Part shown: positions 5,495 to 45,919 of the stretch, piece after piece
Layout: every line of letters starts with the position of its first letter
How positions within the stretch are numbered: position 1 is the first letter of the stretch
Source of the DNA: Candidatus Eiseniibacteriota bacterium
GTDB taxonomy: Bacteria > Eisenbacteria > RBG-16-71-46 > CAZAMP01
DNA length: 64,000 bases
NCBI GenBank assembly: GCA_965224245.1
Contig: OZ245046.1
Coordinates: 6,048,001 to 6,112,000, forward strand
Direction: 5' to 3'
The notes under the pieces: generated by a model
The model's database searches: none
Told to the model about the DNA's origin: nothing
Seen by the model: the letters and a program-made list of their open reading frames with translations, nothing else
Program-made: the position numbers and the translations under genes

Positions 5495-6022
5495 CTACCG
5501 GTAAACGCTCTTGATCGTCGTCCACGACGCCGGTGCCACGGGGACGTCCTTGCACATGGGGTCCAGGGCCGTACGGGCACCGTCGAACTCGGTCTGGCTG
5601 CAGTAGGGCTGAACGTCCACGCAATCCCCGACGAACGTGAGTTCGAAGTCCTCCGTCCCGGCCAGGACGTCACCCACCCGGACCGCGCTCAGCGTGTAGT
5701 CGTACATGGCGGTACACCCCGGGAAGGGCTCGATCTCCCAGGTGCAGGTCATCTCCATGCTGTCGTCGGTGACGACGCCGTCGCACACGTAGGGGTATGC
5801 GAGGCCCTGGTTGAAGCGGGCGGGCTCGCCGCTGCACATCCGCGAGGGACCATTGAACGGGGTGGTATCGCCGCTGCCGCACTCGCGCTCGACGAAGTCG
5901 ACGTCCCAGACGCCCTCCCAGGCGTCGGTGAAGACCGGGTCCGCGGCGCGGGCACCCGGGAGGACCAGGCTCTGGGCCACGATCACGAGACCGAGGGACG
6001 CGACGCGACGCGAGCGAGACAT
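5495..6022 (-). CDS. Secreted Cys-rich protein with C-terminal PVAPASWTTIKSVYR tag
   Basis: SD AGGAGGT and ATG 6022; signal peptide ending ARA; tag at the C-terminus. Confidence 0.75.
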   Translation of the reverse strand: MSRSRRVASLGLVIVAQSLVLPGARAADPVFTDAWEGVWDVDFVERECGSGDTTPFNGPSRMCSGEPARFNQGLAYPYVCDGVVTDDSMEMTCTWEIEPFPGCTAMYDYTLSAVRVGDVLAGTEDFELTFVGDCVDVQPYCSQTEFDGARTALDPMCKDVPVAPASWTTIKSVYR

Positions 6023-6431
6023 GGACACCTCCTGGGGTGGGTCAGGATGACGGGAGCCTAACATATCGTTCATGTGCCGGCTCTCCGGGGGCGTGTTTGG
6101 ATGATGGCGTCGACTGATCGGGCGACCCCGGTCTCGCTCCGCCCGGTGTGGGGGCATCGGGTGTCGCAGCCGCCGAGGCGAGCCGGCACGCGGTGCCTGT
6201 ACCGGCCCTCGCCGCGCAGCGCGCTGTGCTCCCATCTCATGCAAAAACAGTGACTTATGTCGAGGATGGGCGTGACGCGATCGAGACCGGTGGCGTGCGG
6301 CCCGCCGCTCTCGCGGTATCGTCCGCGGCCGGTCGATGGGCCGGGCGTCGTCCATGTCGACGCGTCTCCCGGGGGGCGATCGCGGGGGCCGAGGAGCCCT
6401 CCTCCCGGTGCACGGAACGGCGGTTTTGGTG

Positions 6432-6461
6432 TTGACCCGCCAACTCGCGCTTCGATAGACT
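6432..6461 (+). promoter_or_regulatory. sigma70-type promoter of the ribosomal superoperon
   Basis: TTGACC-N18-TAGACT upstream of rpsL. Confidence 0.7.
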
Positions 6462-6485
6462 CCTCGCCCGTTGCTCAGACACCTT

Positions 6486-6513
6486 CCGGGTCCCGGCGGG
6501 GCCCGGTTCTTTT
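6486..6513 (+). terminator. Terminator-like hairpin in the rpsL leader (possible attenuator)
   Basis: CCGGGTCCC-GGC-GGGGCCCGG followed by TTCTTTT. Confidence 0.5.
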
Positions 6514-6547
6514 GTCACGCGCATTTAGCGCAGGGAGATATCGGTCT

Positions 6548-6919
6548 GTGCCTACCCTGAACCAGTTGGTCCGAAAAGGCCGTCAGCGCCAGCTCAAGAA
6601 GACGACGGCACCCGCGCTGAAGTCGTGCCCCCAGAAGCGGGGTGTGTGCACGCGCGTGTATACGAGCACCCCCAAGAAGCCGAACTCGGCGCTTCGGAAG
6701 GTCGCTCGCGTCCGTCTGACCAACGGGATCGAGGTCACCGCGTACATTCCGGGCGAAGGCCACAACCTGCAGGAGCACGCGATCGTGCTCATCCGCGGGG
6801 GCCGCGTGAAGGATCTCCCCGGTGTGCGCTATCACATCATCCGAGGCACCCTGGACGCTTCCGGCGTCGAGGGGCGCAATCAGGGTCGTTCGAAGTACGG
6901 CACCAAGAAGCCGAAGTAG
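6548..6919 (+). CDS. rpsL: 30S ribosomal protein S12
   Basis: [12 protein letters not shown]...[11 protein letters not shown]...[14 protein letters not shown] start. Confidence 0.98.
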
Positions 6920-6943
6920 CCGATCTAGGAGCCTGGAAACGAT

Positions 6944-7414
6944 ATGCCGCGACGCAAAGCCGCCGTCAAACGCGAGATCCTGCCGGATCCGAAGTATGGC
7001 AACGTCCTCGTCTCCCGATTCGTCAACGCGCTGATGCAGGGCGGCAAGAAGAGCGTGGCCGAGAAGATCCTGTACTCGTCGATGGATCTGATCCAGTCGC
7101 GTAGCGATCAGGATGGTCTCGAGATCCTGAAGAAGGCCGTCAACAACGTGAAGCCGGCCGTCGAGGTCAAGAGCCGCCGCGTGGGTGGCGCCACCTATCA
7201 GGTTCCGGTGGAGATCCGTCCCGAGCGGCGCCTGGCGCTCTCGCTGCGCTGGCTGATCGGCTACGCGAAGGACCGGCCCGAGAAGACGATGGCCGAGCGC
7301 CTCGGCGCCGAGCTCCTGGCCGCCTCCAAGAACGAGGGTGCGGCGGTGAAGAAGCGCGAGGACACGCATCGCATGGCCGAGGCCAACAAGGCGTTCGCAC
7401 ACTACCGCTGGTAA
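6944..7414 (+). CDS. rpsG: 30S ribosomal protein S7
   Basis: MPRRK...[11 protein letters not shown]...[12 protein letters not shown]. Confidence 0.98.
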
Positions 7415-7460
7415 CGGCGGATCGATCTTGGGGGGCCGCGCATGCGCGCCGGCCCCCACA

Positions 7461-7600
7461 CCGACAGGGGTGAGGCACCCCTAAGACAGCTCTCGGATGG
7501 CGATGGCTCCCGAGCCCCGTGCTTCGACGCGCGGAGAGGTGAGGGCGCACACTATCGGACCCATCCTCTTTGGGAAGCCACCGAGAGCGGCAGCACGCCG
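7461..7600 (+). ncRNA. Candidate structured RNA between rpsG and fusA
   Basis: Nested stems AGGGGTG/CACCCCT, GCTCTCGG/CCGAGAGC, TGGCTCCCGAG/TTTGGGAAGCCA, CCGTGC/GCGCGG and AGAGG/CCTCT within a roughly 380-nt non-coding gap. Confidence 0.6.
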
Positions 7601-7796
7601 GCGACGGGACGTCGCTGGGCCGCATGGGCGGGCCGGGGTGACTGCCGGCGCACAGGCGCGGGTCCGGAGAACATAGCGCTCGAGGCGAGGGTCGCCTCGG
7701 GAGTCGTAGCAACTCCGTCTCAGAACGGCGACACGCGAGACACGTTTCGCAGTACCGCCATGCGCGGATGGGCGAAGTGTGTCGGAGGTTTCATTG

Positions 7797-9890
7797 ATGG
7801 CTGGTCGTGTCCCTCTCGACCGCATCCGCAACATCGGGATCATGGCCCACATCGATGCGGGCAAGACGACGCTCACCGAGCGCATCTTGTTCTACACCGG
7901 ACGTACGCATCGGCTGGGCGAGGTCCACGACGGCGCCGCTACCATGGACTGGATGGCCCAGGAGCAGGAGCGCGGCATCACGATCACGTCCGCGGCCACC
8001 ACGGCCGACTGGAAAGATCATCAGATCAACATCATCGACACGCCCGGCCACGTCGACTTCACGATGGAGGTCGAGCGGTCGCTGCGCGTCCTCGACGGCG
8101 CCATCGCCGTCTTCTGCGCCGTGGGCGGCGTCGAGCCGCAGTCCGAGACCGTCTGGCGCCAGGCCGACCGGTACGGCGTCCCGCGAATCGCGTTCGTCAA
8201 CAAGATGGACCGCGTCGGCGCCGACTTCCGCGGCACGATGGCGATGATCCAGGAACGCCTGGGCGCCAGGCCGCTGCCGGTCGTCTTCCCGGTCATGGTG
8301 GGTGACATCATCCACAGTCTCGTCGACATCGTCGAGATGCGTGAGATCACCTACATGGAAGAGACCATGGGCGCGACCTACGAGATCCACGACGTCAACG
8401 ACGACGTCCGGGAGCGTGCCGAGCAGGAGCGCCAGAACATCATCGAGGCCGTGGCCGAGTTCGACGACGATCTCATGCACACGTACCTCGAGGGCGAAGA
8501 GGTCACACCCGACGCACTCAGGGCCGCGATCCGCAAGGGATGTCTGGCCAACGCCGTGGTGCCCACGCTGTGCGGCTCGGCGTTCAAGAACAAGGGCGTC
8601 CAGCGCCTTCTCGACGCGGTGATCGCCTACCTGCCGGCGCCCACCGACGTGCCCGCGATCACCGGAGAGGACCTCAAGACCACCGAGATCGTGGAGCGCC
8701 CCGCCGACCCGAAGGCGCCGTTCGCCGGGCTCGTGTTCAAGATCGTCACCGACCCCTACATCGGGCGGCTCTCGTACTTCCGCGTCTACTCGGGCATCGT
8801 GAAGAAGGGCGACTCGGTCTACAACACCGGTCGGGACTCGCGCGATCGCATCGGGCGCCTGGTTCGCATGCACGCGAACAAGCGCGAGGAGATGGAGCAG
8901 CTCAGCGCGGGCGACATCGGCGCCATCGTGGGGCTGAAGAAGGCCAAGACCGGTGACACGCTGTGCACTCCGGATGCGCCGATCGTGCTGGAGTCGATGC
9001 ACTTCCCCGAGCCGGTGATCTCGGTGGCCATCGAGCCCAAGACGCGCAACGACGAGGAGCGGCTCGGTCACGCCCTGGAGGGGCTCTCGGACGAGGATCC
9101 CACGTTCCAGGTGCGCACCGATCCCGAGACGGGTCAGACGCTCATCTCCGGGATGGGCGAGCTGCACCTGGAGATTCTCGTCGATCGGATGAAGCGTGAG
9201 TTCAAGGTCGAGGCCAACGTCGGCGCCCCGCAGGTCGCTTACCGCGAGCGCCTCGTGGGCTCGGCGCGGCTCCGTCACAAGTACGCGAAGCAGTCGGGCG
9301 GTCGTGGTCAGTTCGCCGACGTGGACATCATGGTCGAGCCGACCGAGCCGGGGAAGGGCTTCGAGTTCGAGAACAAGATCGTGGGCGGCAACATCCCGCG
9401 CGAGTACATCCCCGCGGTCGAGTTCGGCTGCAAGGATGCGCTCCAGAACGGCGTGATGGCCGGCTTCCAGATGATCGACGTGAAGGTCACGCTGGTCGAT
9501 GGGAGCTTCCACGCGGTCGACTCGTCGGAGATGGCGTTCCGCATCTGCGGCAGCATGGCGTTCAAGGAGGCGGCGCGGAAGGCCGGCGTCGAGCTTCTGG
9601 AGCCGGTCATGGACATCGAGGTGATCGTGCCGTCGCAGTACGTCGGCGACGTCGTGGGCGATCTCTCCAGCCGCCGCGGAAACGTGGGCGGCATGTTCCA
9701 GCGCAACGAGTCGCAGGTGGTGGCGGCGCACGTCCCGCTCAAGGAGATGTTCGGATACGCGACCGCGCTCCGGTCGATGAGCCAGGGCCGGGGCATCTAC
9801 TCCATGCAGTTCGGTCGATACATGCCCGTTCCCAAGAACGTGGCCGAAGAGATCGTGAAGAAACAAACGGGCACGGCGGCACCCGCGTAG
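7797..9890 (+). CDS. fusA: Elongation factor G
   Basis: [37 protein letters not shown] before ATG 7797. Confidence 0.98.
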
Positions 9891-9960
9891 GGGCTCGTCG
9901 TTCCTTCGGGTAACGCGACCTCGGGCGCCGGCCCGGGACGCTGGGGAGGATCTTCGACAG

Positions 9961-11166
<1,206 letters not shown>

Positions 11167-11294
11167 CGAAACGCGACGCGATCCCCCGGGTCGGCCCCGT
11201 GGGATCGGCTCGCGCGTGTCTTTCGAGGCTGTCTTCGTGACGCCGTCACCCCGGGTGGGCGGCTTCGCGAAGCGAAGTCGCCAAGGAACGTGAC

Positions 11295-11603
11295 GTGACT
11301 GGTCAGAAGATCCGGATCAAGTTGAAGTCGTACGACCACGTTCTCCTCGACCATTCGGCGGGCGAGATCGTGAAGACGGCGAAGCGGACCGGCGCGTTGA
11401 CGTCGGGTCCGATCCCGTTGCCGACGCGGCGTTCGCTGTACACGGTGCTGCGTTCGCCGCACGTGGACAAGAAGTCGCGGGACCAGTTCGAGATGCGTGT
11501 CCACAAGCGTCTGATCGACATCTCGCAGTCGACGCCGCAGACGCTGGAAGCGCTCACGAAGCTGGATCTGCCGGCGGGCGTGGACATCGAGATCAAGCTG
11601 TGA
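11295..11603 (+). CDS. rpsJ: 30S ribosomal protein S10
   Basis: [11 protein letters not shown]...[16 protein letters not shown]. Confidence 0.97.
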
Positions 11604-11672
11604 CCTGGCTCGCGCCGCGAGCCACCGACACGAAAACGCGCGTGCGCGCGTGCAGGTAAGTGAGGCCGTGAC

Positions 11673-12290
11673 GTGCCTGGACTGATTGGAAAGAAAGTCG
11701 GAATGACCCAGATCTACGGTGAGGACGGCGTCGCGGTGCCCGTCACCGTGATCGAGGCGGGTCCCTGCACCGTCGTGCAGGTCAAGACCGACGAGACGGA
11801 CGGCTACCGGGCCGTGCAGCTCGGCTTCCAGCCGAGCCCCGAGCGAAAGGTCAACAAGCCCATGGCCGGGCACTTCAAGTCGCGAGGCACGGCTCCGTTC
11901 CGTCATCTGCACGAGTTCCGGAGCGGCGACGGAGTCTACGAGCCGGGCCAGGTCTTGAAGTCCGACCACTTCGACAGCGGCACCAAGGTCAGCGTGACCG
12001 GCCGCTCGAAGGGCCGCGGGTTCCAGGGGGTCGTCAAGCGCCACAACTTCGGCGGCGGTCCCGAGACGCACGGCGCGAAGACGCACGACGAGCCCGGCTC
12101 GATCGGGAACAGCGCCTATCCCGGCCGCGTGTGGAAAGGCAAGAAGCTCCCCGGGCACATGGGCAACGCGACCGTGACGTTGCGCGGGCTGACGATCGTG
12201 GGCGCCGACGCGGAGCGGAACCTCCTGTGGATCCGCGGCGCGGTCCCGGGCGCGCGCGGCAGCCTCGTCTACATTCGCAAGCAGGACTAG
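11673..12290 (+). CDS. rplC: 50S ribosomal protein L3
   Basis: GKKVGMTQI...[12 protein letters not shown]...GHMG. Confidence 0.97.
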
Positions 12291-12301
12291 CGGGGGACCA
12301 G

Positions 12302-12937
12302 ATGATCTCGGCGAAACGCTACACGAGCCAGGGCGACGAGTCGGGCACGGCCGAGCTCCCGAAGCATCACTTCGGCGAGAAGGTCAACGACCACGTCATG
12401 TGGCTCGCGGTGTGCTCATACCTCGCCCACCAGCGGCAGGGAACCTCCAGCGTGCGCAATCGCAAGGCGATCCGCGGCGGAGGACGAAAGCCGTTCCGTC
12501 AGAAGGGCACGGGACAGGCGCGTCAGGGTACGCGCCGCTCGCCGCTGATGGTCGGCGGTGCGCGCGCGTTCGGGCCGCGCCCTCGAAGCTACAGTGTCCG
12601 TCTTCCCCGCAAGGTGAAGGCGCTCGGCATCCGGTCCGCGCTGTCGCTGGCGGCGCAGGAAGACCGCATTCACGTCGTGGACGACTTCGGCTTCGACAAG
12701 CCCAGCACGAAGGTGTTCGCGTCCACGCTGGCGAAGATGGGGCTCGGCGCGTCGAAGTGCGTCCTGGTGACGTCCGACGACGATCGCGTCGCGTACCTGT
12801 CGGCGCGCAACGTGCCCAACGTCGCCGTGATCTCGGTCGGGCGGCTGAACACCTACGAGCTGCTCAACTGCGAGGCGGTCGTCATGACCCAGGGCGCGCT
12901 GGCGGCGCTCGAGGCGTCGGCGGAAGGCGGTGAGTGA
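12302..12937 (+). CDS. rplD: 50S ribosomal protein L4
   Basis: RQGT...GGGRKPFRQKGTGQARQG; ATG 12302. Confidence 0.97.
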   Translation: MISAKRYTSQGDESGTAELPKHHFGEKVNDHVMWLAVCSYLAHQRQGTSSVRNRKAIRGGGRKPFRQKGTGQARQGTRRSPLMVGGARAFGPRPRSYSVRLPRKVKALGIRSALSLAAQEDRIHVVDDFGFDKPSTKVFASTLAKMGLGASKCVLVTSDDDRVAYLSARNVPNVAVISVGRLNTYELLNCEAVVMTQGALAALEASAEGGE

Positions 12938-13227
12938 TGCGGAACTCGCGAATGATCGTCAACCGGGCGCTCCTCACCGAGAAGGGTGCCGGGCAGCGCG
13001 AAGACGAGAACCAGTACTTGTTCGAGGTCGCGATGGACGCGAACAAGATCGAGATCAAGCGCGCCGTCGAAGAGATCTTCGACGTCACGGTCGTTGGTGT
13101 TCGTACGATGATCCGGCGCGGCAAGAACAAGCGCCAGGGTCGCTACGAAGGCAAGCGCCCGAACTGGAAGCGGGCGATCGTGACGCTCGCCAAGGACGAC
13201 ACCATCGACCTCGTCGATCAGGTCTAA
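12937..13227 (+). CDS. rplW: 50S ribosomal protein L23
   Basis: LTEK...[11 protein letters not shown]...WKRAIVTL. Confidence 0.96.
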
Positions 13228-13240
13228 GAGGAGTCGAGGA

Positions 13241-14074
13241 ATGGCTCTGAAGAAGTTCAAGCCCATAACCCCGACCTTGCGGTTCAAGACGGTCTCGGAC
13301 TTCTCCGACATCACGCGGTCGGAGCCCGAGAAGTCGCTGGTGCAGCCGCTCAAGCGCAGCGGGGGACGCAACAACCAGGGTCACGTCACGTCGCGGCGCC
13401 GCGGTGGGGGGCATCGTCGCCGTTACCGCGTGATCGATTTCAAGCGACAGAAGCACGGGATCCCGTCCAAGGTCGTGAGCATCGAGTACGACCCGAACCG
13501 CTCGGCGCGCATTGCGCTGTTGCAGTACGCCGACGGCGAGAAGCGGTACATCCTCGCCCCGATCGGGCTGTCGGTGGGCGACGAGATCATGAGCGGGCCC
13601 CAGGCCGAGATCCGTCCCGGCAACGCGCTGCCGCTCCGGTACATCCCGCTGGGCACGTCGGTGCACAACATCGAGCTCGTGCCGGGCCGGGGCGGCCAGA
13701 TGGCGCGCGGCGCCGGCTCGTTCGCCCAGGTGATGGCCAAGGAGGGCGACTACGCCACCCTGCGCCTCCCGTCCAGCGAGATGCGCATGGTCCGGCTCGC
13801 GTGCCTGTGTACGATCGGTCAGACCGGCAACATCGAGCACCAGAACATCTCCATCGGCAAGGCGGGTCGCAATCGCTGGCTCGGTCGCCGTCCCAAGGTG
13901 CGGGGCGTGGCCATGAACCCGGTCGACCACCCGATGGGCGGCGGCGAGGGGCGCAGCTCCGGCGGGCGTCATCCCTGCACGCCGTGGGGCAAGCCGACCA
14001 AGGGATACAAGACTCGCAAGCGCAAGCCGTCCGATCGTCTGATCGTTCGCCGGCGCAAGAAGAAGAACAGCTAG
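13241..14074 (+). CDS. rplB: 50S ribosomal protein L2
   Basis: [36 protein letters not shown]. Confidence 0.98.
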
Positions 14075-14087
14075 GGGGAGCGCGTAG

Positions 14088-14348: not shown

Positions 14349-14362
14349 TTCCGGAGGACGGC

Positions 14363-14701: not shown

Positions 14702-14731
14702 GCCGAGTCGTTCCGAGAGTTGGAGGACGGT

Positions 14732-15391: not shown

Positions 15392-15406
15392 GGAGAGGAT
15401 CGTCCC

Positions 15407-28538: not shown

Positions 28539-30155
28539 TCACTCGCGCCGTCGCGCGACGAGCCACACCTCGCGCGCCGCGGCCACCGGCATCGCGTGCA
28601 ACGCGGCGTGACAGCGCCAGCACACCGTGGCCAGGTTCTCCATCGTGTTCCGACCCCCGCGCTCCACGGGCAGCCGATGATGCACCGCGAGGTGATGACG
28701 GCTGTTGCACCCGGGTACACGGCATCGGTGCTCGTCGCGCGCGAGCACGCGTCGCCGCAGGCTCGGCGCGATGCTGGCGCGCCGCCGACCGCGAGCGTCG
28801 ACGACGTCCGCGTCGGCGAGAATGGCCCGGCGCATGACATCGTTGAGCGGACGATCGCCGACGCGCGCCCGATGACAGGTCGGACAGTCCTGGACGACGA
28901 TCTGATAGCACGACCGCGGTCCCGCCTCTGCCACCATCGCCGACGACGAGGAAGACGGCGTGGAGCATGACGCCGAGGAGGACGCTGCCGACGACGCCGA
29001 CGCCGGAGACGACGGAGGCACGCGGGATGAGGAAGCCGACGGGGATGAGGAAGACGGCGCCGTCGACCGAGCCGCCGCTTCCGCCGACGTCGACCGAGGC
29101 GCCGACCCCGACGACAGGGCGTTCGCGAACATCGCCATCGCCGCGACGACGAACTCCGCCTTCGAGCCCCGGAACCCGTGCTTCCGGGCGTGCTCCCACG
29201 CGGCCTCGGCGTGCGCATGGGAGAGGGTGTCGAGCCGCACGCGCAGCTCGAGAGTCACCTCGAGCGTCGGCGCCGATGTCACGGCCGCATCGCCGACCCC
29301 AGCGACCGAGTCGACGTCCGCGACCGAGTCGGCCACCGAAGGGCAGTCGTCCGCGACGGTGGAGTTGGTCCCCGCGGCGGAGTCGACCGCTGCGGCCGAG
29401 TCAGCCACCGCGTCCGCGCCGGCGCCGGACACGGCGATGCTGTCCGCGTTGGCGAGATCGGCCGCGATGGCCTCATCGGCGGCCCGCGCGACGTCGGCCG
29501 CGCCGATCGTCGGCGACGACGCCGCGTCCCCTCGTGACGATGGCTTCGCCGGCACCGGATCGACCCGGATCGTCTCCTGCGCCCCGCCACCGACCGCACG
29601 CCGCGCCGCCCCCCGGGCGTCCGCGATCCGCTGCTCCAGCTCCCGACGCGACAGGCGCGACGCCAGCCCGATCCACGCATCCGCGGACGAGGCGGTCAGG
29701 ATCGGGGCGATCGCGCGCGCCTTCGTCCAGCTCAGCCGGCCCGACGCCATCGCGTCGCGGAGCGCCGGGAACTCCCGCATCCGCTCGGACAGCCCCCGCA
29801 GCTGATGACACCGCGACGCCGACATCTCCAGTCGCTCCATCGCGTACGCCAGCATCGAGGTGAAGCCGAGCACGCGATAGTGGTGCTCGGCGTCGATCTC
29901 GGCGAACGACAGCGCGACCGCGACGCTCGCGCGGCCTTCCAGACGTCGCACGCGCTCCAGCCGCCGGCAGGCGCGACGCGAGCGCGCCTCGCGCCGAGCG
30001 TCCGTCCCCTGAAGACGGGAGCGCGCGTTGTTCCGAACGTCCGTCCCCTGAAGACGGGAGCGCGCGTCGCTCCGAACGTCCGTCCCCTGGAGGCCGCTCG
30101 TGTTCGTGCTGGACATGCTCGCGACACGCGATGGCTCGGTCCTGGACACCCGCAT
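28539..30155 (-). CDS. HNH endonuclease with DUF222-like N-terminal region and low-complexity linkers
   Basis: C-terminal RRVLARDEHRCRVPGC...LAVHHR...GG...ENLATVCWRCH; N-terminal ALRDAMASGRLSWTKARAI. Confidence 0.8.
   Translation of the reverse strand: MRVSRTEPSRVASMSSTNTSGLQGTDVRSDARSRLQGTDVRNNARSRLQGTDARREARSRRACRRLERVRRLEGRASVAVALSFAEIDAEHHYRVLGFTSMLAYAMERLEMSASRCHQLRGLSERMREFPALRDAMASGRLSWTKARAIAPILTASSADAWIGLASRLSRRELEQRIADARGAARRAVGGGAQETIRVDPVPAKPSSRGDAASSPTIGAADVARAADEAIAADLANADSIAVSGAGADAVADSAAAVDSAAGTNSTVADDCPSVADSVADVDSVAGVGDAAVTSAPTLEVTLELRVRLDTLSHAHAEAAWEHARKHGFRGSKAEFVVAAMAMFANALSSGSAPRSTSAEAAARSTAPSSSSPSASSSRVPPSSPASASSAASSSASCSTPSSSSSAMVAEAGPRSCYQIVVQDCPTCHRARVGDRPLNDVMRRAILADADVVDARGRRRASIAPSLRRRVLARDEHRCRVPGCNSRHHLAVHHRLPVERGGRNTMENLATVCWRCHAALHAMPVAAAREVWLVARRRE
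29980..30090. repeat. 39-bp coding tandem repeat (LQGTDVRxxARSR, about 3 copies)
   Basis: CGTCCGTCCCCTG at 29999, 30038 and 30077. Confidence 0.9.
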
Positions 30156-30845: not shown

Positions 30846-31661
30846 TCAGCGATAGAGGGCCTTCATCCGGCCCCACGTCGACCGGTTGACCGGCGTCCCC
30901 GCGCAGGCGTCACAGGTGGGCACGGCGATGCCGTCGCACTCCTCGCAGCCGGACACCCACACGCAGGTGCCGTCGGAACGGCAGCACCAGGTCCCGCCGG
31001 TCGGTCGATCCGAGGACACCTCCACGTATCGGAGTAGCGCGAGCTCGTAGCCGATGCCGAACACGTCGGTGGCGGGCGTCCAGTCCGCGAAGCCGAAGAA
31101 GTCGGATCGGAAGTGAGCCTCGGCGCCGTTCCCGGTTCCGGTGGCGACGCCCCACTGCGGTGGGAAGCACGCGTCGGCGATGACGCTCACGTGGTAGGTA
31201 CACCCGTACTCGAGAAAGACGTAGGAGAAGGTCCCACAGTATCCGTACGGGTCGCCCGGTGCCTCGTTGTACTCGGTCAGGTAGCGGGTCGCCACTTCCT
31301 CGCCGGGAACACCCGCGTCGTCCAGATAGTACGAGATGCGGAATCCGTCCGGCGGCACGGGCGATCCGTTCCAGTAGACACCCCACCAGCCGATGCCGAC
31401 GTCGCCGTATCCGGCCACGAAGTCGTCGGCCATCTCGGAGACGAACGGGTAGCAGACGTCGTCCTGCGAGGACAGGCCGCTCTGACCGTCGGGAAACTGC
31501 TCCCACTCGATGAAACCGTCGCAGTCGTACGGTCCGGGCTCGAGCGAGCCGCCCGATGGCGTGGCGGTGAGCGTGGGCACGTCCGCGCCCGCGGGTAGCG
31601 CGAGGGCGGCGGCGAGAACCGGGATCGAGAGAGCCAGTCGTGCCGATGCGTGGTGTGACAT
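30846..31661 (-). CDS. Secreted beta-rich protein with Cys-rich linker and C-terminal TPVNRSTWGRMKALYR tag
   Basis: SD GAGG and ATG 31661; signal peptide; SEMADDF...WWGVYW core. Confidence 0.8.
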   Translation of the reverse strand: MSHHASARLALSIPVLAAALALPAGADVPTLTATPSGGSLEPGPYDCDGFIEWEQFPDGQSGLSSQDDVCYPFVSEMADDFVAGYGDVGIGWWGVYWNGSPVPPDGFRISYYLDDAGVPGEEVATRYLTEYNEAPGDPYGYCGTFSYVFLEYGCTYHVSVIADACFPPQWGVATGTGNGAEAHFRSDFFGFADWTPATDVFGIGYELALLRYVEVSSDRPTGGTWCCRSDGTCVWVSGCEECDGIAVPTCDACAGTPVNRSTWGRMKALYR

Positions 31662-31810: not shown

Positions 31811-32461
31811 TCAGCGGGGAGCGTGCGCGTGAACGGCCTTGATCGAGCCCCACGTGTGCCGCTCGACCGGCGTGGAGCGGCCGGCGTCGTACAGGCGGAA
31901 TGCGCGCTTGGAGATCACGGCCTCCCAGACCGGGTGCCCGAGGAGCGCCGAGCGAAAGCAGCCGACCTCCTCGTCGAGCACCGCGCTCGCCCAGCCCCAC
32001 TCGGGCGGATAGCACAGGATCGCCACGATCGAGACGTAGTAGCGTCGGCCCTCGACCGTGGGCACGGGCGCGGTCAGCGTCGCGCAGTAGCGGCCGAGTC
32101 CGCCGGGGCCGGACGACACGTCGAAGTCGTGGGTCTCGAGCTCGGCGATCGGGAGCCCCGGGCAGCCGCCACCGTCGGTGTAGAAGCTGATCCGGAACCC
32201 CTCGGGTCGCTTCGCCGAGCCCGACCAGAAGACGCCCCACCACTCGACGGCGCCGACGTCGTTGCCGTTGCCGACGAACCAGTCCGCGGACTCGCTGAGA
32301 AAGGCCGAGCAGCGATCGTCGATGGACGTGATGCCGAGCGCCTCGACGGGAAGCTGCTCCCACGCGACGGCGCCGCCGCACGCGGTCTCCGCCGGGGCGG
32401 GCGCCGGCGAGAGCCACACAGTCAGCGTGATCAGGGCGATCAGCGACGATCGACTACGCAT
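31811..32461 (-). CDS. Secreted protein, paralog of the adjacent gene, with TPVERHTWGSIKAV tag
   Basis: Signal peptide; SESADWF...WWGVFW...GFRISFY shared with 30846-31661. Confidence 0.8.
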   Translation of the reverse strand: MRSRSSLIALITLTVWLSPAPAPAETACGGAVAWEQLPVEALGITSIDDRCSAFLSESADWFVGNGNDVGAVEWWGVFWSGSAKRPEGFRISFYTDGGGCPGLPIAELETHDFDVSSGPGGLGRYCATLTAPVPTVEGRRYYVSIVAILCYPPEWGWASAVLDEEVGCFRSALLGHPVWEAVISKRAFRLYDAGRSTPVERHTWGSIKAVHAHAPR

Positions 32462-36004: not shown

Positions 36005-36046
36005 CGAGAAGACCTCCTCACCCGAGCTCCGGCGCTCCCGCCGCCG

Positions 36047-38407: not shown

Positions 38408-38480
38408 CGTCGCACGCCCCCGCTCGCGTCCGCTGCGATCGCCGCCGTGCGGGTCACGCGGTGTGTCACCTCGTCGAGCC

Positions 38481-39206
38481 TCACCACACCAGCTCCTCCG
38501 GGGTGAGTCGGGTCGCGTTCCGCTCCACGCCCACGATCTGTCCGTCCGCGAGCCGGATCACGCGATCGGCCAGCGCGGCGATCGCGGCGTTGTGCGTGAT
38601 GACGGCCGTCGTGGTTCCACGCTCCCGGTTAGCCCGCGCGATGGCCTCGAGCACGGTGATGCCGGTGGTGATGTCGAGCGCGCCGGTCGGCTCGTCGCAC
38701 AGGAGCACGTCCGGGTTCTTGGCGATGGCCCGCGCGATTGCCACGCGCTGCTGCTCGCCACCGGAGAGCTGCGACGGGAAGTGATCGGCCCGCTCGGTGA
38801 GCCCGACCAGGGCGAGGGCGTCGGCCGGCCGCATCGGGTCCCCGGCGATCTCGGTCACCAGCGCGACGTTCTCGCGGGCGGTGAGGCTCGGGATGAGGTT
38901 GTAGAACTGGAAGACGAAGCCGACGTGATGGCGCCGGTACGCGGTGAGGTCGGCCTCCGTCGACTCGGTGAGCACGTGGTCCCGGTAGGCCACCGAGCCC
39001 GACGTGGGAACGTCGAGGCCGCCCAGGATGTTCAGGAGCGTCGACTTCCCGCTTCCGGAGGGGCCGAGGAGGACGACGAGCTCGCCCTCGAAGAGCTCGA
39101 GGTCGACGCCGCGCAGCGCATGTACCCGGACCTCGCCCGTGACGTACGTCTTGGTGACGCGCGTGGCGCGGAACACGGTGGCGAGTGGGGGCGCCGTCTG
39201 GGGCAT
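38481..39206 (-). CDS. ABC transporter ATP-binding protein (LolD/MacB-like)
   Basis: [40 protein letters not shown]. Confidence 0.95.
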
Positions 39207-39526
39207 CGCTCACGTTCCATTCCCGAGCACGGCCGTCGCTCCTCGACGCGTCGTTCGTCGACGCGTCGTCGCTCGACGAACGAGCTTAGCACCCGGGACG
39301 GCATCCCACAGCCTCGACCGGCGGTCGACGTCCGGAACGCGGCCGGCCCACGCTCCGGAGGGACCACGGGCACTCGCCGTGCCCCGTGCACGCGGAGGCC
39401 ACTCCGGCATTGTATGATTGCGGGGTGTCCAGCCGGGCCGCCCCGCCGCGCCGAGCCATTCAGGGGCCGTGATCGGCGGCGCCGGGCGACGCGGGGAACC
39501 CGGTCGATCTCTCGGAGGAGAGCGGG

Positions 39527-40441
39527 ATGGAGAGACACTCGGAGAACCGTCCGCGGAGAGTGAGCGTCGTGCTCGCGACGACTCTGTTGCTCCGGGCGTC
39601 GGGCATGGTCGCGGCACCGATCGATACGCCGGTCACCACCACGTTCGACGAGTCGCTCGAGGGCTGGTCGATTCCCCCGGAGCAGCTCGTGGATCTCATC
39701 TACATGGGCGCTGGCGGTAATCCGGGCGGTTTTGCGCTCTTCGGCGAGACGAACCCGACAGCGACCGAGATCGAGGCACCACCGGTGTACCTCGGGGACT
39801 GGTCCGAGCTCGACGGTGTCGGACGCCTGCAGTTCGACCACAAGATCCTCGAGCTGGGGGAGCTGCCGGACGGCCCCCCGTATCTCCCCTACGAAGCGGT
39901 CATCACCGGTGGCGCGAATCGAGCGCGGTTCGTGTCCGCGGAGACCGCCGTCGAGGAGTGGAACACGGTCACCGTGCCCATCGAGGAAACCGAGTGGTCG
40001 ATCGAGAAGGGTACGTGGAGCGAGCTCCTGACGAACGTGGAGAGTCTTCGGATCCGGATCGAGCTCGTCGCAAACCCGGGTAGCACGGTGGATGATCAGG
40101 ACGGCATCGACAACGTGTCACTGATGGGGGCGATGGCCGGCTTGGCCACCGGAACACCGGATGTCTCGGTCTCGATGCTCGTGGAGCCGAATCCGTTCCG
40201 GGCTCGAACGGCGGTCGTGATCTCCGGTACCGCGACCGCCCCCGTGCGAGTCGCCCTGTACGACACGGCGGGACGCCGCGTTTCCCTCCTGTTCGACGGT
40301 GTCCTCGACGCCGGCGCGATCCAGCGCATCGTCTGGGATGGGCGCGACGCGTGGCACCGCGTCATGGCGCCGGGCGTCTACCTCGTGCGCATCGTGGGGC
40401 GCGACATCGATCGTACGCAGAAGATCGTCCGAATCGAGTGA
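39527..40441 (+). CDS. Secreted protein: laminin-B-like domain plus FlgD-Ig tail
   Basis: Signal peptide; EAPPVYLGDWS...LQFD...IDNVSL; PNPF...LYDTAGRRV...VWDGRD...PGVYLV. Confidence 0.7.
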   Translation: MERHSENRPRRVSVVLATTLLLRASGMVAAPIDTPVTTTFDESLEGWSIPPEQLVDLIYMGAGGNPGGFALFGETNPTATEIEAPPVYLGDWSELDGVGRLQFDHKILELGELPDGPPYLPYEAVITGGANRARFVSAETAVEEWNTVTVPIEETEWSIEKGTWSELLTNVESLRIRIELVANPGSTVDDQDGIDNVSLMGAMAGLATGTPDVSVSMLVEPNPFRARTAVVISGTATAPVRVALYDTAGRRVSLLFDGVLDAGAIQRIVWDGRDAWHRVMAPGVYLVRIVGRDIDRTQKIVRIE

Positions 40442-40458
40442 CGCAAGGGGTAGAGTTG

Positions 40459-42345
40459 ATGAACGAGCGCCACGACATCGGAGCCGGTCGGCTCCTGGAC
40501 CTTCCCTGGAACTCGACCTGGCACCCTCGCCCGGCGCCGTGCGTGAGCCTGACGCGGGCCCTCGCGATCGGGCCCGTTCTCGGCGCGCTGGCCGCATTCG
40601 CCGCGCCGCCGGGCATCGCCTACGCGGTCGGGCTCCCGATCCAGATCGACGGCGACTACGACGACTGGGACGCCTCGGCCGTCGTCGCCACCGATCCCTC
40701 CGGCGACGACGGTTCGTCCGGGATCGACTTCACGGTGCTCCAGATGGCCGACGACGGCGAGCGGGTGTTCATCCGCTTCGACACCACCGCCGAGGTGCAG
40801 GGCGACGAGGGGCAGTCCCTCGTGGTCGCGTTCGACACCGATCGCAACGCCGGCACCGGGCAATGGGTCCACGGAGTGGGAGCCGAGCTCATCTGGCAGC
40901 TCGGGGCCCGGACCGGCAACCGGTATCCCGGCGGCGCCGGCGTCGGGCACGCCGAGATCGGACTCGTGCTCGCTCCCACGGTCAGCGACGTGGCCATGGA
41001 GCTGGCCCTCGATCGGGACGCATCGCCGGGCGGCTCGCCGCTCTTCGGAGGGCCGGACGTGGACGTCGTGGTGTGGGACGATGCCCCGGGCGGCGACGTG
41101 ATCGGCGTAGCCACGTACACGTTCGTCGACGACACGTTTCCGGTGACGCCGATCCCGCTCGGTCGGGACGATCCCGATCACGTCCGCATCGCCGCGTACA
41201 ACGTCGAGAACGACGGCCTGTTCGACGGGGGATCCACCGAGGCCGCGTTCGATCGCCTGCTGAGCGCCGCGGACGCGGACGTGTTCGTGTTCTGCGAGCT
41301 CTGGAGCTACGACGCCGCCGACGTGGTGGACCGGATGGAGGAGTTTCTCCCGCCGTCCGGGGGCGAGAGCTGGTACGCCGTCAAGCGCGACGCCGGCAAC
41401 GTGGTGGCCTCGCGGTTTCCGATCCTCGACTCCTGGGAGATCCTGCCCGGGAGCCGCCTGACCGGCGTGCTCGTGGACCTCCGGCCCGACACCGACTCCG
41501 ACCTCCTCGTCGTCGCGAACCACTGGAGCTGCTGCACGGCCGACGGCAACCGCCAGATGCAGGCCGACGCGCTGATCGCGTTCCTGCGCGACGCGCGCAC
41601 GCCCGGCGGTGCGATCACGCTCGTCGAGAACACGCCGATCGTGGCCGCCGGCGACTTCAACCTCGTGGGCCTTCGCCGGCAGCTCGAGACGCTCATCACC
41701 GGGGACATCGCCGACAACGGCACGTTCGGTCCCGATTCGCCGCCGGACTGGGACGGGGGCGACTTCGCGATGACGCTGGCCCGTCATCCGGACGCGCGCC
41801 TCGTCTACACCTGGCGCCGCGACTCGAGCTCGTTCTACCCCGGCAAGCTCGACTACGTGTTCTTCACGTCGAGCGTGGCCACGCTTCACAAGGCGGTCGT
41901 GTTCGAGACGCGCACGATGTCGCCGGCGACGCTGGCCGCGAACGGCCTCGGCGCCGACGACACGGAGATCGCGAGCGATCACGCCGCGATCGTGGCCGAC
42001 TTCACGTTCGGCGCGCTCCTGGGCGCCGCCGACCCGACGGGAGGCGCCGCCCACGCACCGTGGGGGCACCTGGCGCCGGTCAGAAACCCGGTTCACCTCG
42101 GCGGGTCCATCACGTCCGGACTCACGTTGACCGGGGCCGCGACCGTCGACGTGGCCGTGTTCGACACCGTCGGTCGCCGCGTGGCCTCGCTCCTCCAGGG
42201 CCGCCTGCCACCGGGGACGCACGCACTGGTCTGGGACGGACGGGACCACGCGGGGCATCCGGTGACGCCGGGGCTCTACTACCTCCGCGCATCGCGCGAG
42301 GACACGCCGGCGCCGATCGCGACCAAGGTGGTCGTGCTCCGGTGA
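40459..42345 (+). CDS. Secreted endonuclease/exonuclease/phosphatase-family protein plus FlgD-Ig tail
   Basis: AYNV, AGDFN, LDYV, SDH motifs; tail VFDTVGRRV...VWDGRD...PGLYY. Confidence 0.85.
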   Translation: MNERHDIGAGRLLDLPWNSTWHPRPAPCVSLTRALAIGPVLGALAAFAAPPGIAYAVGLPIQIDGDYDDWDASAVVATDPSGDDGSSGIDFTVLQMADDGERVFIRFDTTAEVQGDEGQSLVVAFDTDRNAGTGQWVHGVGAELIWQLGARTGNRYPGGAGVGHAEIGLVLAPTVSDVAMELALDRDASPGGSPLFGGPDVDVVVWDDAPGGDVIGVATYTFVDDTFPVTPIPLGRDDPDHVRIAAYNVENDGLFDGGSTEAAFDRLLSAADADVFVFCELWSYDAADVVDRMEEFLPPSGGESWYAVKRDAGNVVASRFPILDSWEILPGSRLTGVLVDLRPDTDSDLLVVANHWSCCTADGNRQMQADALIAFLRDARTPGGAITLVENTPIVAAGDFNLVGLRRQLETLITGDIADNGTFGPDSPPDWDGGDFAMTLARHPDARLVYTWRRDSSSFYPGKLDYVFFTSSVATLHKAVVFETRTMSPATLAANGLGADDTEIASDHAAIVADFTFGALLGAADPTGGAAHAPWGHLAPVRNPVHLGGSITSGLTLTGAATVDVAVFDTVGRRVASLLQGRLPPGTHALVWDGRDHAGHPVTPGLYYLRASREDTPAPIATKVVVLR

Positions 42346-42358
42346 TGTCGCCCGGCCG

Positions 42359-42387
42359 TTGACCCTCCTGGCGCGCCCGCGTACCGT
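42359..42387 (+). promoter_or_regulatory. Candidate sigma70 promoter
   Basis: TTGACC-N17-TACCGT. Confidence 0.45.
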
Positions 42388-42411
42388 TCGGGGCCGGTCC
42401 CGAACCCGGCG

Positions 42412-43113
42412 GTGCGCGTGCCCGGTCCCAAGCTCGAGATCCTCGGATACGAGACGACGCCGATCGGCACGCTGTGCCTTCGCCGCCGGCGTTTTCTCCG
42501 CCAGCCCGACACCGTAGTCACCGAGATCACGCTCGATCACGAGCTCCTGATGTCGAGCCTCCACACCGCGTCCGAGCGTGCGCTCGCGAACGCGGCGCTC
42601 GAGCGTCACGGCGGGCACGATCTCGATGTGATGATCGGGGGGCTCGGGCTCGGGTACACGACCCACGAGGCGCTGGCGTCGGACCGGGTGGCCCGCGTCG
42701 AGGTGATCGAGCTCCTGGAGCCGGTGGTCGACTGGCTCCGCGAGGGGCTGATGCCGCTCTCGGCGGCGCTGACGGCCGACGCGCGCCTCACGATCACCCG
42801 GGGCGACGCATACGCGCGGCTGGCCGGCGAGCCCGACCGTGCCGTGGATCTGATCCTCGTCGACGTCGATCACTCCCCGGACGAGCCCCTGTCCGACGCG
42901 AGCGCCGCGTTCTACACCACCGAGGGCCTCGAGCGCGCGCGGCGGCACCTGTCGCCGGGCGGCGTCCTCGCGACCTGGTCGTACGCCCCGAGCGATGCCT
43001 TTACCGCTCGCCTGGGAGAGGTGTTCTCGAGCGTACACGTGGAGACGGTCACGTTCGAGAACGTGCACGTGGGCGAGACGTGCACCGACTGGCTCTTCCT
43101 CGCCACGCGATGA
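42412..43113 (+). CDS. Spermidine-synthase-like SAM-dependent methyltransferase
   Basis: LMSS, IGGLGLGYT, LILVDVD, GGVLATWS. Confidence 0.85.
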   Translation: MRVPGPKLEILGYETTPIGTLCLRRRRFLRQPDTVVTEITLDHELLMSSLHTASERALANAALERHGGHDLDVMIGGLGLGYTTHEALASDRVARVEVIELLEPVVDWLREGLMPLSAALTADARLTITRGDAYARLAGEPDRAVDLILVDVDHSPDEPLSDASAAFYTTEGLERARRHLSPGGVLATWSYAPSDAFTARLGEVFSSVHVETVTFENVHVGETCTDWLFLATR

Positions 43114-44507
43114 TGCGCATCCGAGGCCGCCGCGGCGTGCGTGGTGTACACAGGGGTCTCCTCATCGCGTGCACGAACGCGCGCACGATGACGCGCACGA
43201 TGTCGCGCACGATGGCGCACACCGGGGCGTGCACGATGGCGCGCATGATCGCGCGCACGACTGCGGGCGTGACCGCGGGCGTGATCACAGGCGTGATCAC
43301 AGGCGTGATCGCAGGACCGATCGTCGGCGCGAGCGCCCCTCATGCCGATCACGTGCCCTTGCCGGACGACGTCCGCGCGATCTGGGTCGTGCGCGACGCA
43401 CTCGGAGACCCGGGGCCGGAGCGGATCGTCCGCGACGCGATCGAGGTGGGCGCCAACACGCTCTTCGTGCAGATCGTGGGGCGGGGCGACGCGTGGTTCA
43501 CGTCCTCGCACCTGCCGCGCGCCGAGATGCTGCCCCCGGAGGCAGGGGATCCCCTGGCCGAGATCCTGTCGATCGCGCATCGCGCCGGGCTCTCGGTCCA
43601 CGCGTGGATCAACGTGGCGGTGCTCTGGAGCGGCGCCGAGCCGCCGGCCTCGCCGATGCACGTCGTGAACGCGCGACCCGAGTGGGTGATGTGCCTCCCG
43701 AGCGGCTACTCGATGGTGACCGTGCCCCAGGACACGCTTCGCGCTCTGTACGTCGAGGGCCTCTTCGCCGAGCTCGCGCACGAGGGATATCGCGCGCACC
43801 TCGCCCGGGTCGTGGACGAGGTGCTCGACGGATACGACGTGGACGGGATCCATCTGGACTACGTTCGCCGTCCGGTCGTCGACGGCGGATACGATCGCGG
43901 CACGCTCGGCCGCTTCCTGGAGTCGGCCGGCGTGACGCGCGCCGAGGTGATGCCCGACTGGACGCGGGAGCTTCCGGCGCGCCGGTACCAGTGGCCGGAC
44001 TACGGGGACTCGGTCTCGGCGCCGATTCACCGGAAGTGGAACCGGTATCGGCGCGAGACGGTGACCGAGGCCGTGCGCGGCATCCGGGCGGTCGTGGACC
44101 GGCACGCGGCGTCCAGCGGCCGGGCGCTCGTCCTGTCGGCGGCGGTCATTCCCGATCCCGTGCGCGCGAGAAGGCGGTTCGCTCAGGACTGGCCCGCATG
44201 GATAGACGAGGGGCTCCTCGATGTCGCGGTGCTGATGTGCTACGCGAAGGGGACGAAGCCCGCGATCGCCCAGCTCGCGGCGGCGCGGGCCGAGGCGCCG
44301 GCGCGGCGGATCGTGGCCGGCGCGGGGGCGTGGCATCAGCCTCTCGGCGATGCCGCGCTGTCGCTGCGCCGCATGCTCGACGACGACGTGCGGGGGGTGT
44401 GTGTGTTCCCGTGGAGCGCGCTCTCGACCGACGTCCGGAAGAGCGTGCGTCTCGTGGGCCGGGCCTGGCGTCCACCATCACCCGCGCCGCCGGGATCGGA
44501 CCGCTGA
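43110..44507 (+). CDS. Glycoside hydrolase, GHL10/DUF187-like TIM barrel
   Basis: RAIWV, NTLFVQIVGRGDA, VHAWIN, YDVDGIHLDYVR, QDWPAW; start uncertain because of 12-bp repeats in the N-terminus. Confidence 0.8.
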   Translation: MMRIRGRRGVRGVHRGLLIACTNARTMTRTMSRTMAHTGACTMARMIARTTAGVTAGVITGVITGVIAGPIVGASAPHADHVPLPDDVRAIWVVRDALGDPGPERIVRDAIEVGANTLFVQIVGRGDAWFTSSHLPRAEMLPPEAGDPLAEILSIAHRAGLSVHAWINVAVLWSGAEPPASPMHVVNARPEWVMCLPSGYSMVTVPQDTLRALYVEGLFAELAHEGYRAHLARVVDEVLDGYDVDGIHLDYVRRPVVDGGYDRGTLGRFLESAGVTRAEVMPDWTRELPARRYQWPDYGDSVSAPIHRKWNRYRRETVTEAVRGIRAVVDRHAASSGRALVLSAAVIPDPVRARRRFAQDWPAWIDEGLLDVAVLMCYAKGTKPAIAQLAAARAEAPARRIVAGAGAWHQPLGDAALSLRRMLDDDVRGVCVFPWSALSTDVRKSVRLVGRAWRPPSPAPPGSDR

Positions 44508-44609
44508 CCCGACTTCGCTCCAAACAAACACGGGCATCTTCCTTCATAATCTGCTAGTCTGGAATCGCCTCCCCTCCCGGACAACCTCACCGTCCATGAG
44601 GAGGTACTC

Positions 44610-45251
44610 ATGCGAGCAGGCATCTGGCTCGTGATCGCGGCGGGAGCCGTGACCAGCGCGTGGGCCGATCCCGACCTCTCCCTCAACTTCTACTTGACGG
44701 CGCCCAGTTACGCCGGCGTATCGGATCCGGCATTCGACGCCATCAACCAGCTGGACTGCGTCGAGCTTCGCAGCGTACCGATGAGCGGCCCCGCGTTCGT
44801 GTGGGCCGTCGTCAGTCGCGTGGGGGGCTGGCCGGACGGCGTCGGCGGCATCATGTTCGGGGTCGAGTGGAGCGACGTCGCGATGGAGGGATGGTCGCTC
44901 GGCACGGGCGGATCGCTGATCGCGCTCGGTGGCTTCCCCGACAGCGGGACCGGCGCCGCGATGACCTACGAGAGGGGATGCTACGAACCCCAGGGCGAGT
45001 CGTCACGCCTCGGCTTCTTCCTGGTGTCCGACGCGTCGCACGGCGAGATGTCGTTCACCCCGGTCCCGAGTGAGGGGCGTGCCGACGTCGCGACCTGCCG
45101 GGCCGAGGTGTTCACGATCCCGGTCGAGAACCTCGGGTCGATCGTGTTCGGCGCCGAGGTCACGCCGGTCTGCGCGGTCTCGTCTCCGATCCGGGAGCGG
45201 TCGTGGTCGTCGATCAAGGCACTGTACGTCGAACGAGGAGGTGTGAGATGA
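44610..45251 (+). CDS. Secreted protein with SPIRERSWSSIKALY tag
   Basis: GAGGAGG SD; signal peptide; Cys-containing beta domain. Confidence 0.8.
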   Translation: MRAGIWLVIAAGAVTSAWADPDLSLNFYLTAPSYAGVSDPAFDAINQLDCVELRSVPMSGPAFVWAVVSRVGGWPDGVGGIMFGVEWSDVAMEGWSLGTGGSLIALGGFPDSGTGAAMTYERGCYEPQGESSRLGFFLVSDASHGEMSFTPVPSEGRADVATCRAEVFTIPVENLGSIVFGAEVTPVCAVSSPIRERSWSSIKALYVERGGVR

Positions 45252-45919
45252 CCTCCCGCCACATCATGATGCTCGCGCTGCCGCTCGCGCTCGCGCCGCT
45301 CGACGCTCGCGCCGACTTCGACCGGCTGGCGTCGATCAACCTGTACGTGACCGAGCCGAGCTATCTCGGTGCGAACGACCCACGCTACGCGGCCATCGAC
45401 GAGGGGTCGTGCGCCGACCTGGTCAGTGAGCCCGTCGAGGGGCTCACGTACGTGTGGGTCGTGACGAGCCGCGAGGGCGGCTGGGACGACGGGGATCCGT
45501 ACGCCGATCCCGGTCTCTACCTGATCACGTTCGGAATCGAGCACTCGGGCGTCGACGTGCTCGGCTACGTGACGACGTCCGGCCTCAGCGCCAGCTTCGA
45601 CTTCGGATTCCCCGGGTCGGAGGGCGTCGGTCACATCAGCTGGGGTGGCGAGTGCTACGGCCCACCGGGGGGCGAGTCGGCGCGGGCCGGGCTCTTTCTC
45701 CTGGCCGACGGCACGTCGGGCCGGATGGCCCTCACGCCGGCCTCGGCGGGCCACAATCTCACCGGATGGCTCTCCTGCGGACTGACGCTCCACGAGATCC
45801 ACGAGGAGAACCTCGGCTCGATCATCCTGGGGCAGACCGCCGAGCCGGTCTGCGCGGATCTGTTGCCGGTGAAGGAGACGTCGTGGTCGGCCATACGAGG
45901 GCTGTATCGGTCGTACTGA
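45248..45919 (+). CDS. Secreted protein, paralog of the preceding gene, with LPVKETSWSAIRGLYR tag
   Basis: ATGA overlap with previous stop; shared PSY.G..DP...AI....C..L and ENLGSI motifs. Confidence 0.8.
   Translation: MTSRHIMMLALPLALAPLDARADFDRLASINLYVTEPSYLGANDPRYAAIDEGSCADLVSEPVEGLTYVWVVTSREGGWDDGDPYADPGLYLITFGIEHSGVDVLGYVTTSGLSASFDFGFPGSEGVGHISWGGECYGPPGGESARAGLFLLADGTSGRMALTPASAGHNLTGWLSCGLTLHEIHEENLGSIILGQTAEPVCADLLPVKETSWSAIRGLYRSY

Follow-up and report, generated by a model that had tools for sequence, protein, structure and literature searches.

The type IX secretion system's (T9SS) type A C-terminal domain (CTD; TIGR04183 / PF18962, FlgD_ig-like PF13860 in the genome studied here) is a β-sandwich of 67-108 residues at the extreme C-terminus of unrelated Sec-exported passengers. 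The type B and C CTDs, with their PorP/SprF-like barrels, provide a precedent for alternative signals read by paralogous barrels, and type B signals are encoded beside their own barrel. In PMC10202324, the type C CTD is described as distinct in sequence, and the last 22 residues of HBP35 as enough for secretion of green fluorescent protein. A CTD may act in a species-specific manner (PMC11285876). The IPTL-CTERM/exosortase H system (TIGR04174, PF18203) relies on a short signature with Pro and W-G-x-I, and the type I dockerin-cohesin pair (PF00404 / PF00963) on a C-terminal helical module carried by diverse secreted cargo. Here we describe a 15-residue tag, probably an undescribed cell-envelope address label, that ends five proteins in a 64,000-nucleotide window (the whole stretch of DNA that was analyzed, from contig OZ245046.1 of a Candidatus Eiseniibacteriota bacterium) and many more in the source genome, G000 (6.9 Mb, 97% complete).

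Like the type A CTD, the tag closes unrelated Sec-type passengers, exchanges with the CTD in register, begins with a similar x-[small]-V element and occurs in the same genomes, but it is predicted to form a single helix. It shares with IPTL-CTERM a short signature and its position on the choice-of-anchor V passenger (NF041895); unlike IPTL-CTERM, PEP-CTERM, LPXTG and GlyGly-CTERM, it has neither a transmembrane helix nor a basic cluster. It resembles dockerins in its predicted helical nature, its range of cargo, the abundance of cohesin-fold proteins around it and a complementary distribution in the genomes compared, but lacks the duplicated calcium loop-helix and any sequence match. The type B and C signals are domains, whereas the tagged genes are dispersed and no cognate barrel was found for them.

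A terminal tag on unrelated passengers

The tag has the consensus [TV]-P-[VTI]-x3-[ST]-W-[GSA]-x-[ILV]-[KR]-x2-[YFH], mostly followed by R and the stop codon. A loose regular expression run over the six frames of G000 gave 109 matches, 102 of them within 18 residues of a stop, and an iterated position-specific scoring matrix (PSSM) trained on G000 gave 132 matches at a threshold of at least 14 bits, of which 127 lie within 20 residues of a stop, a zone that holds 16.6% of windows. Reversed open reading frames (ORFs) gave 2 matches, neither terminal. The pattern of the original prediction, which was not trained on G000, gave nine six-frame matches, all nine within 7 residues of a stop. Since the untrained pattern and the PSSM both point to the terminus and reversed ORFs are nearly empty, the tag is not a product of chance. 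Across the 127 copies, W is kept in 124, K/R in all 127 and P in 121, and the Pro-to-Trp spacing is fixed.

Our simple gene caller kept 115 of the 127 PSSM-positive ORFs; the other 12, some of which look like broken remnants, fall outside the signal-peptide and length counts. An N-terminal hydrophobic segment, called by a heuristic rather than SignalP, is present in 94 of the 115 tagged proteins, in 322/439 FlgD-tailed proteins and in 1654/4140 (40%) of other proteins, in line with the predicted co-occurrence with Sec signals. A lipobox is present in 2/115 tagged proteins and any transmembrane call in 2/115, as expected for a tag that had been claimed to lack a membrane helix. The 115 proteins fall into 55 sequence clusters; among 37 scanned, the passenger families included β-helix, lamin-tail, GEVED-like and propeller repeats, and the majority had no family. 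The predicted exclusivity holds genome-wide, as none of 465 FlgD-tail ORFs carries the tag (the best internal PSSM scores in these ORFs are 13.3 and 9.3). None of the findings that the original prediction had named as grounds for abandoning it (internal or cytoplasmic occurrence, confinement to one paralogue family, a match to a known sorting model) was encountered, and the tag is very probably a genuine C-terminal address or docking tag.

Tagged proteins in G000 are small, with a median of 229 aa and none of the 115 above 600 aa, as against 230/441 FlgD passengers above that length; longer tagged frames exist in relatives. The genes beside tagged genes are FlgD-tailed more often than expected (80/386 neighbors against 34), and no other recurring neighbor family was found in 92 tag loci or around the 115 tagged genes. 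Orphan copies of the tag in short or shifted frames (C1:39963, 616840, 1777929, 4839109, ~2553600 and others), apparently remnants of broken tagged genes, suggest rapid turnover. At C1:3204225-3208622 (L180), a tagged lamin-tail-domain protein closes a gene run with a CTD-like-tailed lamin-tail protein and two barrel-like unknowns; its orthologues retain the tag even in the tag-poor family f6.

All five tagged ORFs claimed for the window are present, three on the minus and two on the plus strand; each translates and terminates in its tag peptide as described, and the loose expression over the six frames of the window matched exactly these five. They form three BLAST clusters, in keeping with the three unrelated families proposed. 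A 175-aa signal-peptide protein without a Pfam or NCBIfam family (5495..6022, minus strand) belongs to an unnamed pair (2-member cluster) and bears tag copy 1 (5501..5545, minus strand, PSSM 40.9 bits), a 15-aa core followed by R and stop. The DUF7901-like family is represented by a 271-aa signal-peptide protein with a Cys-rich segment (30846..31661, minus strand, 14-member cluster; PF25470 at E 0.003, under the cut-off), ending in copy 2 (30852..30896, minus strand, 39.2 bits), and by a 216-aa signal-peptide DUF7901 protein (31811..32461, minus strand; 25.6 bits, cut-off 24), ending in copy 3 (31829..31873, minus strand, 34.9 bits); a paralogue of the latter at C1:1231273-1232838 has a FlgD-like tail instead of the tag. 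The third cluster comprises a 213-aa signal-peptide protein modeled as a cohesin-like β-sandwich (44610..45251, plus strand; AlphaFold pLDDT 89.7, with structure matches in the PDB), with copy 4 (45183..45227, plus strand, 39.4 bits), and its 223-aa paralogue, placed by BLAST cluster (45248..45919, plus strand), with copy 5 (45863..45907, plus strand, 34.3 bits). A homologue search with 44610..45251 returned no match besides itself.

The window also holds the contrast class, six FlgD/T9SS-tailed ORFs that are all tag-free, as had been claimed. These are a type A-like tailed protein at 3528..5483 (plus strand; TIGR04183 23.7 bits, cut-off 23), a T9SS-tailed protein at 39569..40441 (plus strand; TIGR04183 27.1 bits) and a β-propeller protein with a T9SS tail at 48594..51422 (plus strand; FlgD-tail and TIGR04183 scans), together with three found by the FlgD-tail scan: an Exo/endo/phosphatase-family protein at 40459..42345 (plus strand), a protein at 46057..47826 (minus strand) and a small protein at 53885..54586 (plus strand).

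Two AlphaFold models place the tag as a helix outside the domain, at residues 193-199 beyond a reeler-like sandwich in the first and at residues 199-210, beyond a low-confidence linker, in that of 44610..45251. The original prediction spoke of a short amphipathic helix. The helix is borne out as a prediction; amphipathicity found no support, the hydrophobic moment at 100 degrees being 0.31 against 0.33 for shuffles. In the predicted helix W0, I3, K4 and Y7 are spaced i, i+3, i+4 and i+7 and so would share one face, with a small residue at +1 and often at +5, and this conserved face would fit a protein groove rather than a bilayer. The helix has a net charge of about +1.5, and 116/118 passengers are net negative.

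No model in the Pfam or NCBIfam libraries matches the tag. NCBIfam gave no match over 116 tails at E≤0.01, and true IPTL tails exceed the cut-off. A PDB sequence search gave two matches, both judged chance, of which one is internal to an endoglucanase entry (7t7y) at E 0.011 and the other reached only E 4.3; an Atlas feature search with the tail gave unnamed clusters only, all under 0.9; and literature searches, with most subscription papers and supplements outside their scope, found nothing on it. The tag is thus real and apparently undescribed.

Within the phylum of G000, 115 of 121 genomes have tag matches. Family f6 has 0-4 per genome and the other 16 families 5 to at least 72, except one genome (G094) with a single match; up to 72 matches were scored per genome, so that value is a lower bound. 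We had considered family f6 as a tag-negative set and dropped it, its few copies being genuine. A strict DNA pattern returned at least 127 loci, nearly all of them ORF ends, in records titled Eisenbacteria, Krumholzibacteriota, Latescibacterota, Gemmatimonadota, one Acidobacteriota and many simply "bacterium". Matches in Sulfurimonas and Paraflavisolibacter were rejected as chance frames of 16 and 12 codons, both genomes having no tags. Two Gemmatimonadota-titled tag genomes belong to a small separate phylum in which 10/10 genomes are tag-positive. The phylum of a Zixibacteria-titled genome is tag-negative, with one weak match in each of 5 of its 41 genomes. The range therefore covers at least Eisenbacteria, Krumholzibacteriota- and Latescibacterota-labeled genomes and one further small phylum.

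Exchange with CTDs and the T9SS core

Fifty tagged proteins have a BLAST match to a FlgD-tailed paralogue that extends to the end of the passenger; for 31 of them, the CTD of a paralogue begins at that point. Of 16 distinct FlgD partners, 14 have the CTD linker tripeptide [TVSIL]-[GASD]-[VIA] at most 2 residues away from the tag Pro, against a background of 12.7% over passenger positions, which is a lenient null. A second case is a tagged choice-of-anchor V protein: about 40 of the 120 homologues listed end in the tag, and the other listed homologues terminate in T9SS/FlgD CTDs, a dockerin, IPTL-CTERM or other transmembrane tails. The tag Pro stands 9-13 residues past the shared anchor in 41/41 cases, and the CTD linker at the same distance in 31/45 (13 were not scored and 1 lies at 18). 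A [TVS]-[PAS]-[VT]-E element precedes the tag helix, the in-register element in G000 being [TV]-P-[VT].

G000 encodes the T9SS core, with SprA at 555 bits (cut-off 200), PorU at 469 (cut-off 420) and PorV-family barrels over curated cut-offs; it has 16 PorV/FadL-like barrels, several beside a CTD protein. SprA exceeded its cut-off in 54/54 genomes examined (41/41 tag-bearing, 12/12 tag-less Zixibacteria and one Bacteroidota), and PorU was present in 54/57 (44/47 tag-bearing and 10/10 tag-less Zixibacteria). The core is thus always available to the tag in the genomes examined, yet the core does not imply the tag. Besides porU and porV, their operon encodes an NHL protein, two small barrel-like DUF5683-like proteins and one large protein that is likewise barrel-like; it is broadly conserved across 21 loci, those of Zixibacteria included, and the PorU His/Cys motif is kept in all 21.

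Several observations on gene context accompany these. In most of the tag-bearing lineages sampled, the sprA gene (C1:2011578-2018564 in G000; L202-L216) has lptF/lptG on one side and rimP-nusA-infB on the other; its context differs in Zixibacteria. In 3/3 Zixibacteria porU-porV loci (L239-L241), the PorV barrel ends frames of 900-1070 aa with a long N-terminal extension; in tag-bearing lineages the barrel stands alone.

We tentatively favor, with more reserve than conviction, the view that the tag is a minimal, unfolded alternative to the CTD, read by a T9SS-like SprA/PorV/PorU pathway. Besides the in-register exchange and the T9SS core, the excess of FlgD-tailed neighbors and the precedents of the type C CTD and HBP35 speak for it. 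The passenger would be exported by Sec and lose its signal peptide, as the N-terminal hydrophobic segments suggest, and would then fold with the tag left outside as a short helix on which W0, I3, K4 and Y7 offer one binding face. A shared component of the SprA translocon/PorV-family barrel system would recognize this face, and the small passenger would cross the outer membrane. The element before the helix would be the counterpart of the CTD linker cut by PorU, for which PMC10202324 gives the site T/E/D/N|G/A/S. In 124 tails from other genomes (two chance frames, L075 and L083, excluded), the tag Pro position holds P in 65, A in 25, S in 16 and G in 5, so that 46/124 carry Ala, Ser or Gly, which could fit this site. 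More speculatively, the Ala/Ser/Gly forms may be cut and transpeptidated, and the Pro forms, dominant in G000, may resist cutting and stay barrel-bound.

A number of results weigh against the T9SS-like pathway. Pro occupies the putative P1' site in 121/127 G000 copies. The IPTL Pro falls at the same offset as the tag Pro in 5/5 choice-of-anchor V homologues and this passenger also swaps to IPTL-CTERM, transmembrane tails and dockerin, so that the in-register position is not T9SS-specific. The solved CTDs of PMC11285876 are folded β-sandwiches whose integrity is needed for secretion. As SprA and PorU also occur in tag-less Zixibacteria, their co-occurrence with the tag may reflect ancestry alone. 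The size split between tagged and FlgD passengers, which in G000 confines the tag to proteins below 600 aa, is not accounted for by this reading. Of the features of the type A system, the Sec signal and SprA/PorV/PorU are found with the tag, whereas the Ig-like β-sandwich is not; nor is the PorKLMN/GldKLMN motor, searched as GldM_4th (not found in G000) and GldN (not found in G000, G082, G130 and G180, found in the Bacteroidota genome G122), so the known substrate-delivery motor is missing.

In view of the missing GldM and GldN, one operon of G000 (C1:4763060-4773800, L179) is a candidate energizer for a motor-less T9SS; it carries a PorV-family barrel and a CTD-tailed protein, a TPR protein of 1037 aa (at C1:4767138) weakly similar to PorW/SprE, and ExbB, TonB and two ExbD-like genes. 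The sprA and porU-porV loci, in 21 genomes each, contain no tag-specific gene. A solo PorV2-like barrel (C1:1500466-1501512), conserved in 26/26 genomes of the phylum, looked tag-specific by E-value; it was rejected as a tag-specific hit, again to the detriment of a barrel-based pathway, when a FastTree tree placed orthologues from Zixibacteria (11) and Bacteroidota (1) within its clade. The C25 gene beside it in five genomes is ordinary FlgD-tailed cargo, and no tagged genes were found in the flanking DNA examined. Complex prediction for the canonical PorV, paired with a tail of 32 residues, gave no answer, at a score of 0.00, and is evidence neither for nor against. Of the original proposal, the C-terminal sorting or docking tag without a transmembrane helix is supported; the dedicated export or attachment pathway found no support, no tag-specific gene having been found at the loci and PorV paralogues examined, and the profiling suggested for finding a co-occurring reader yielded two candidates, this barrel and the exosortase discussed below, neither of which tracks the tag.

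Other candidate readers

The strongest rival, which we regard as a serious though minority possibility, makes the tag a one-helix dockerin substitute that docks on divergent cohesin-like domains in a cellulosome-like surface assembly. A T9SS tail on a cohesin-like protein would mark it as an anchoring scaffold or a carrier and the tag on a cohesin as an adaptor, and the other tagged proteins would be cargo, possibly co-exported with a carrier. At E≤0.001 the 44610..45251 model has 11 PDB matches, every one of them from a cohesin or cohesin-dockerin entry (TM-scores by target 0.47-0.62). Its family, the largest tagged family in G000, has 30 members there, of which 25 are tagged, 3 have CTD-like tails (one with two domains) and 2 are apparently broken. 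The tagged family kept in the tag-poor family f6 is likewise cohesin-like by Atlas structure (TM-scores 0.57-0.58, under the Atlas naming bar). Of 12 tag-less Zixibacteria, 11 have between 12 and at least 88 dockerins and the remaining one has 3, against 0-6 per genome among 48 that bear the tag; PF00404 had no match in G000 (88 of 131 candidates scored) and none in tagged proteins. The dockerin found at the tag position in choice-of-anchor V homologues and the tandem cohesin-like arrays of relatives also favor docking. Long scaffoldin-like proteins with such arrays were seen in G027:C8, G007:C1 and other relatives, and within at least one of these regions there are tag matches too.

The dockerin contrast, however, sets one clade against others rather than recording independent losses, and by sequence the cohesin-like family was detected in just 16/60 genomes, with weak profile links to look-alike families in other lineages. 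A cohesin with an anchor tag would be equally expected of an anchoring scaffoldin under a sorting model. Cohesin-like folds are, moreover, common without dockerin binding.

An envelope signal independent of the T9SS, with its own reader (a periplasmic protease or transpeptidase, a chaperone or an outer-membrane protein), seems unlikely; such a signal may descend from an IPTL-CTERM-like one whose membrane helix was lost. In sequence the tag is similar to the first half of IPTL-CTERM, with Pro followed by W-G-x-I at a distance shorter by one residue, and the two take up one position on a shared passenger; tag-less Zixibacteria put IPTL-CTERM on the choice-of-anchor V passenger (P0102), and none of the T9SS genes examined is tag-specific. 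An exosortase cannot be the universal reader, however, and was rejected as tag reader because a search of 59 tag-bearing genomes gave no PF09721 match in 18, of which seven are tag-rich and 92-100% complete; the tag-rich genomes without a match include G001, G004, G006, G015, G047 and G082, which are 98-100% complete and have 20 to at least 72 tags. The exosortases of G000 serve their own transmembrane PEP-CTERM and XrtH-type substrates, and the lack of a recurring neighbor gene at tag loci likewise counts against a dedicated reader. The exosortase systems of G000 are separate, ordinary sorting systems: a small exosortase-H-like gene faces a substrate with a transmembrane tail, and two EpsH-type exosortases accompany about nine PEP-CTERM proteins (C1:5569906-5570892, L201; C1:4810237-4814398; C1:1609455).

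It is improbable that there is no protein reader and that the basic, aromatic helix binds lipopolysaccharide or membrane directly, tethering acidic passengers: the opposite charges of helix and passengers fit, and W and Y are interfacial residues, but the hydrophobic moment does not exceed that of shuffles, the near-invariant W and K/R and the fixed Pro-to-Trp spacing suggest a stereospecific receptor, nine residues are short for a membrane anchor, and the crossing of the outer membrane is left unexplained. A reader other than these four is very improbable.

The rest of the window and meaning of the tag

An ordinary ribosomal protein superoperon, rpsL to rplQ, was recognized from translations at 6548-27577 of the window. 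A 525-aa protein at 28539-30116 has short repeats at its N-terminus and an HNH domain at its C-terminus. Mobile-element genes occupy 55270-60739, namely a tyrosine integrase (56914-57504), a large serine recombinase (58698-60248), a DUF2924 gene (60251-60739) and two unknown ORFs.

New here are the exclusion by profile of the exosortase and of the PorV paralogue, an outgroup that has the T9SS but not the tag, the reading of the conserved residues as one helix face, the difference in size between tagged and FlgD passengers, and the complementary distribution of dockerins and tag. We consider it fairly likely that in several phyla of uncultured diderms a membrane-free helix of 15 residues serves as an address for a protein receptor, either as a first peptide-sized signal for a motor-less SprA/PorV/PorU system or as a one-helix dockerin substitute that assembles about 100 small proteins on divergent cohesin surface scaffolds.

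Of about 5,000 called genes in G000, 115 carry the tag, about 2% of the proteome, and across lineages nearly all the proteins it marks are unannotated; with a hidden Markov model of the tag, thousands of hypothetical proteins would gain a location class. If the reader is SprA/PorV, a T9SS signal need not be a folded domain but can be as small as a peptide, and this would bear on substrate recognition and on the way such a system runs in the absence of GldKLMN. Should the readers be cohesins, the tag would be a docking module of minimal size and as such interesting for protein assembly and display.

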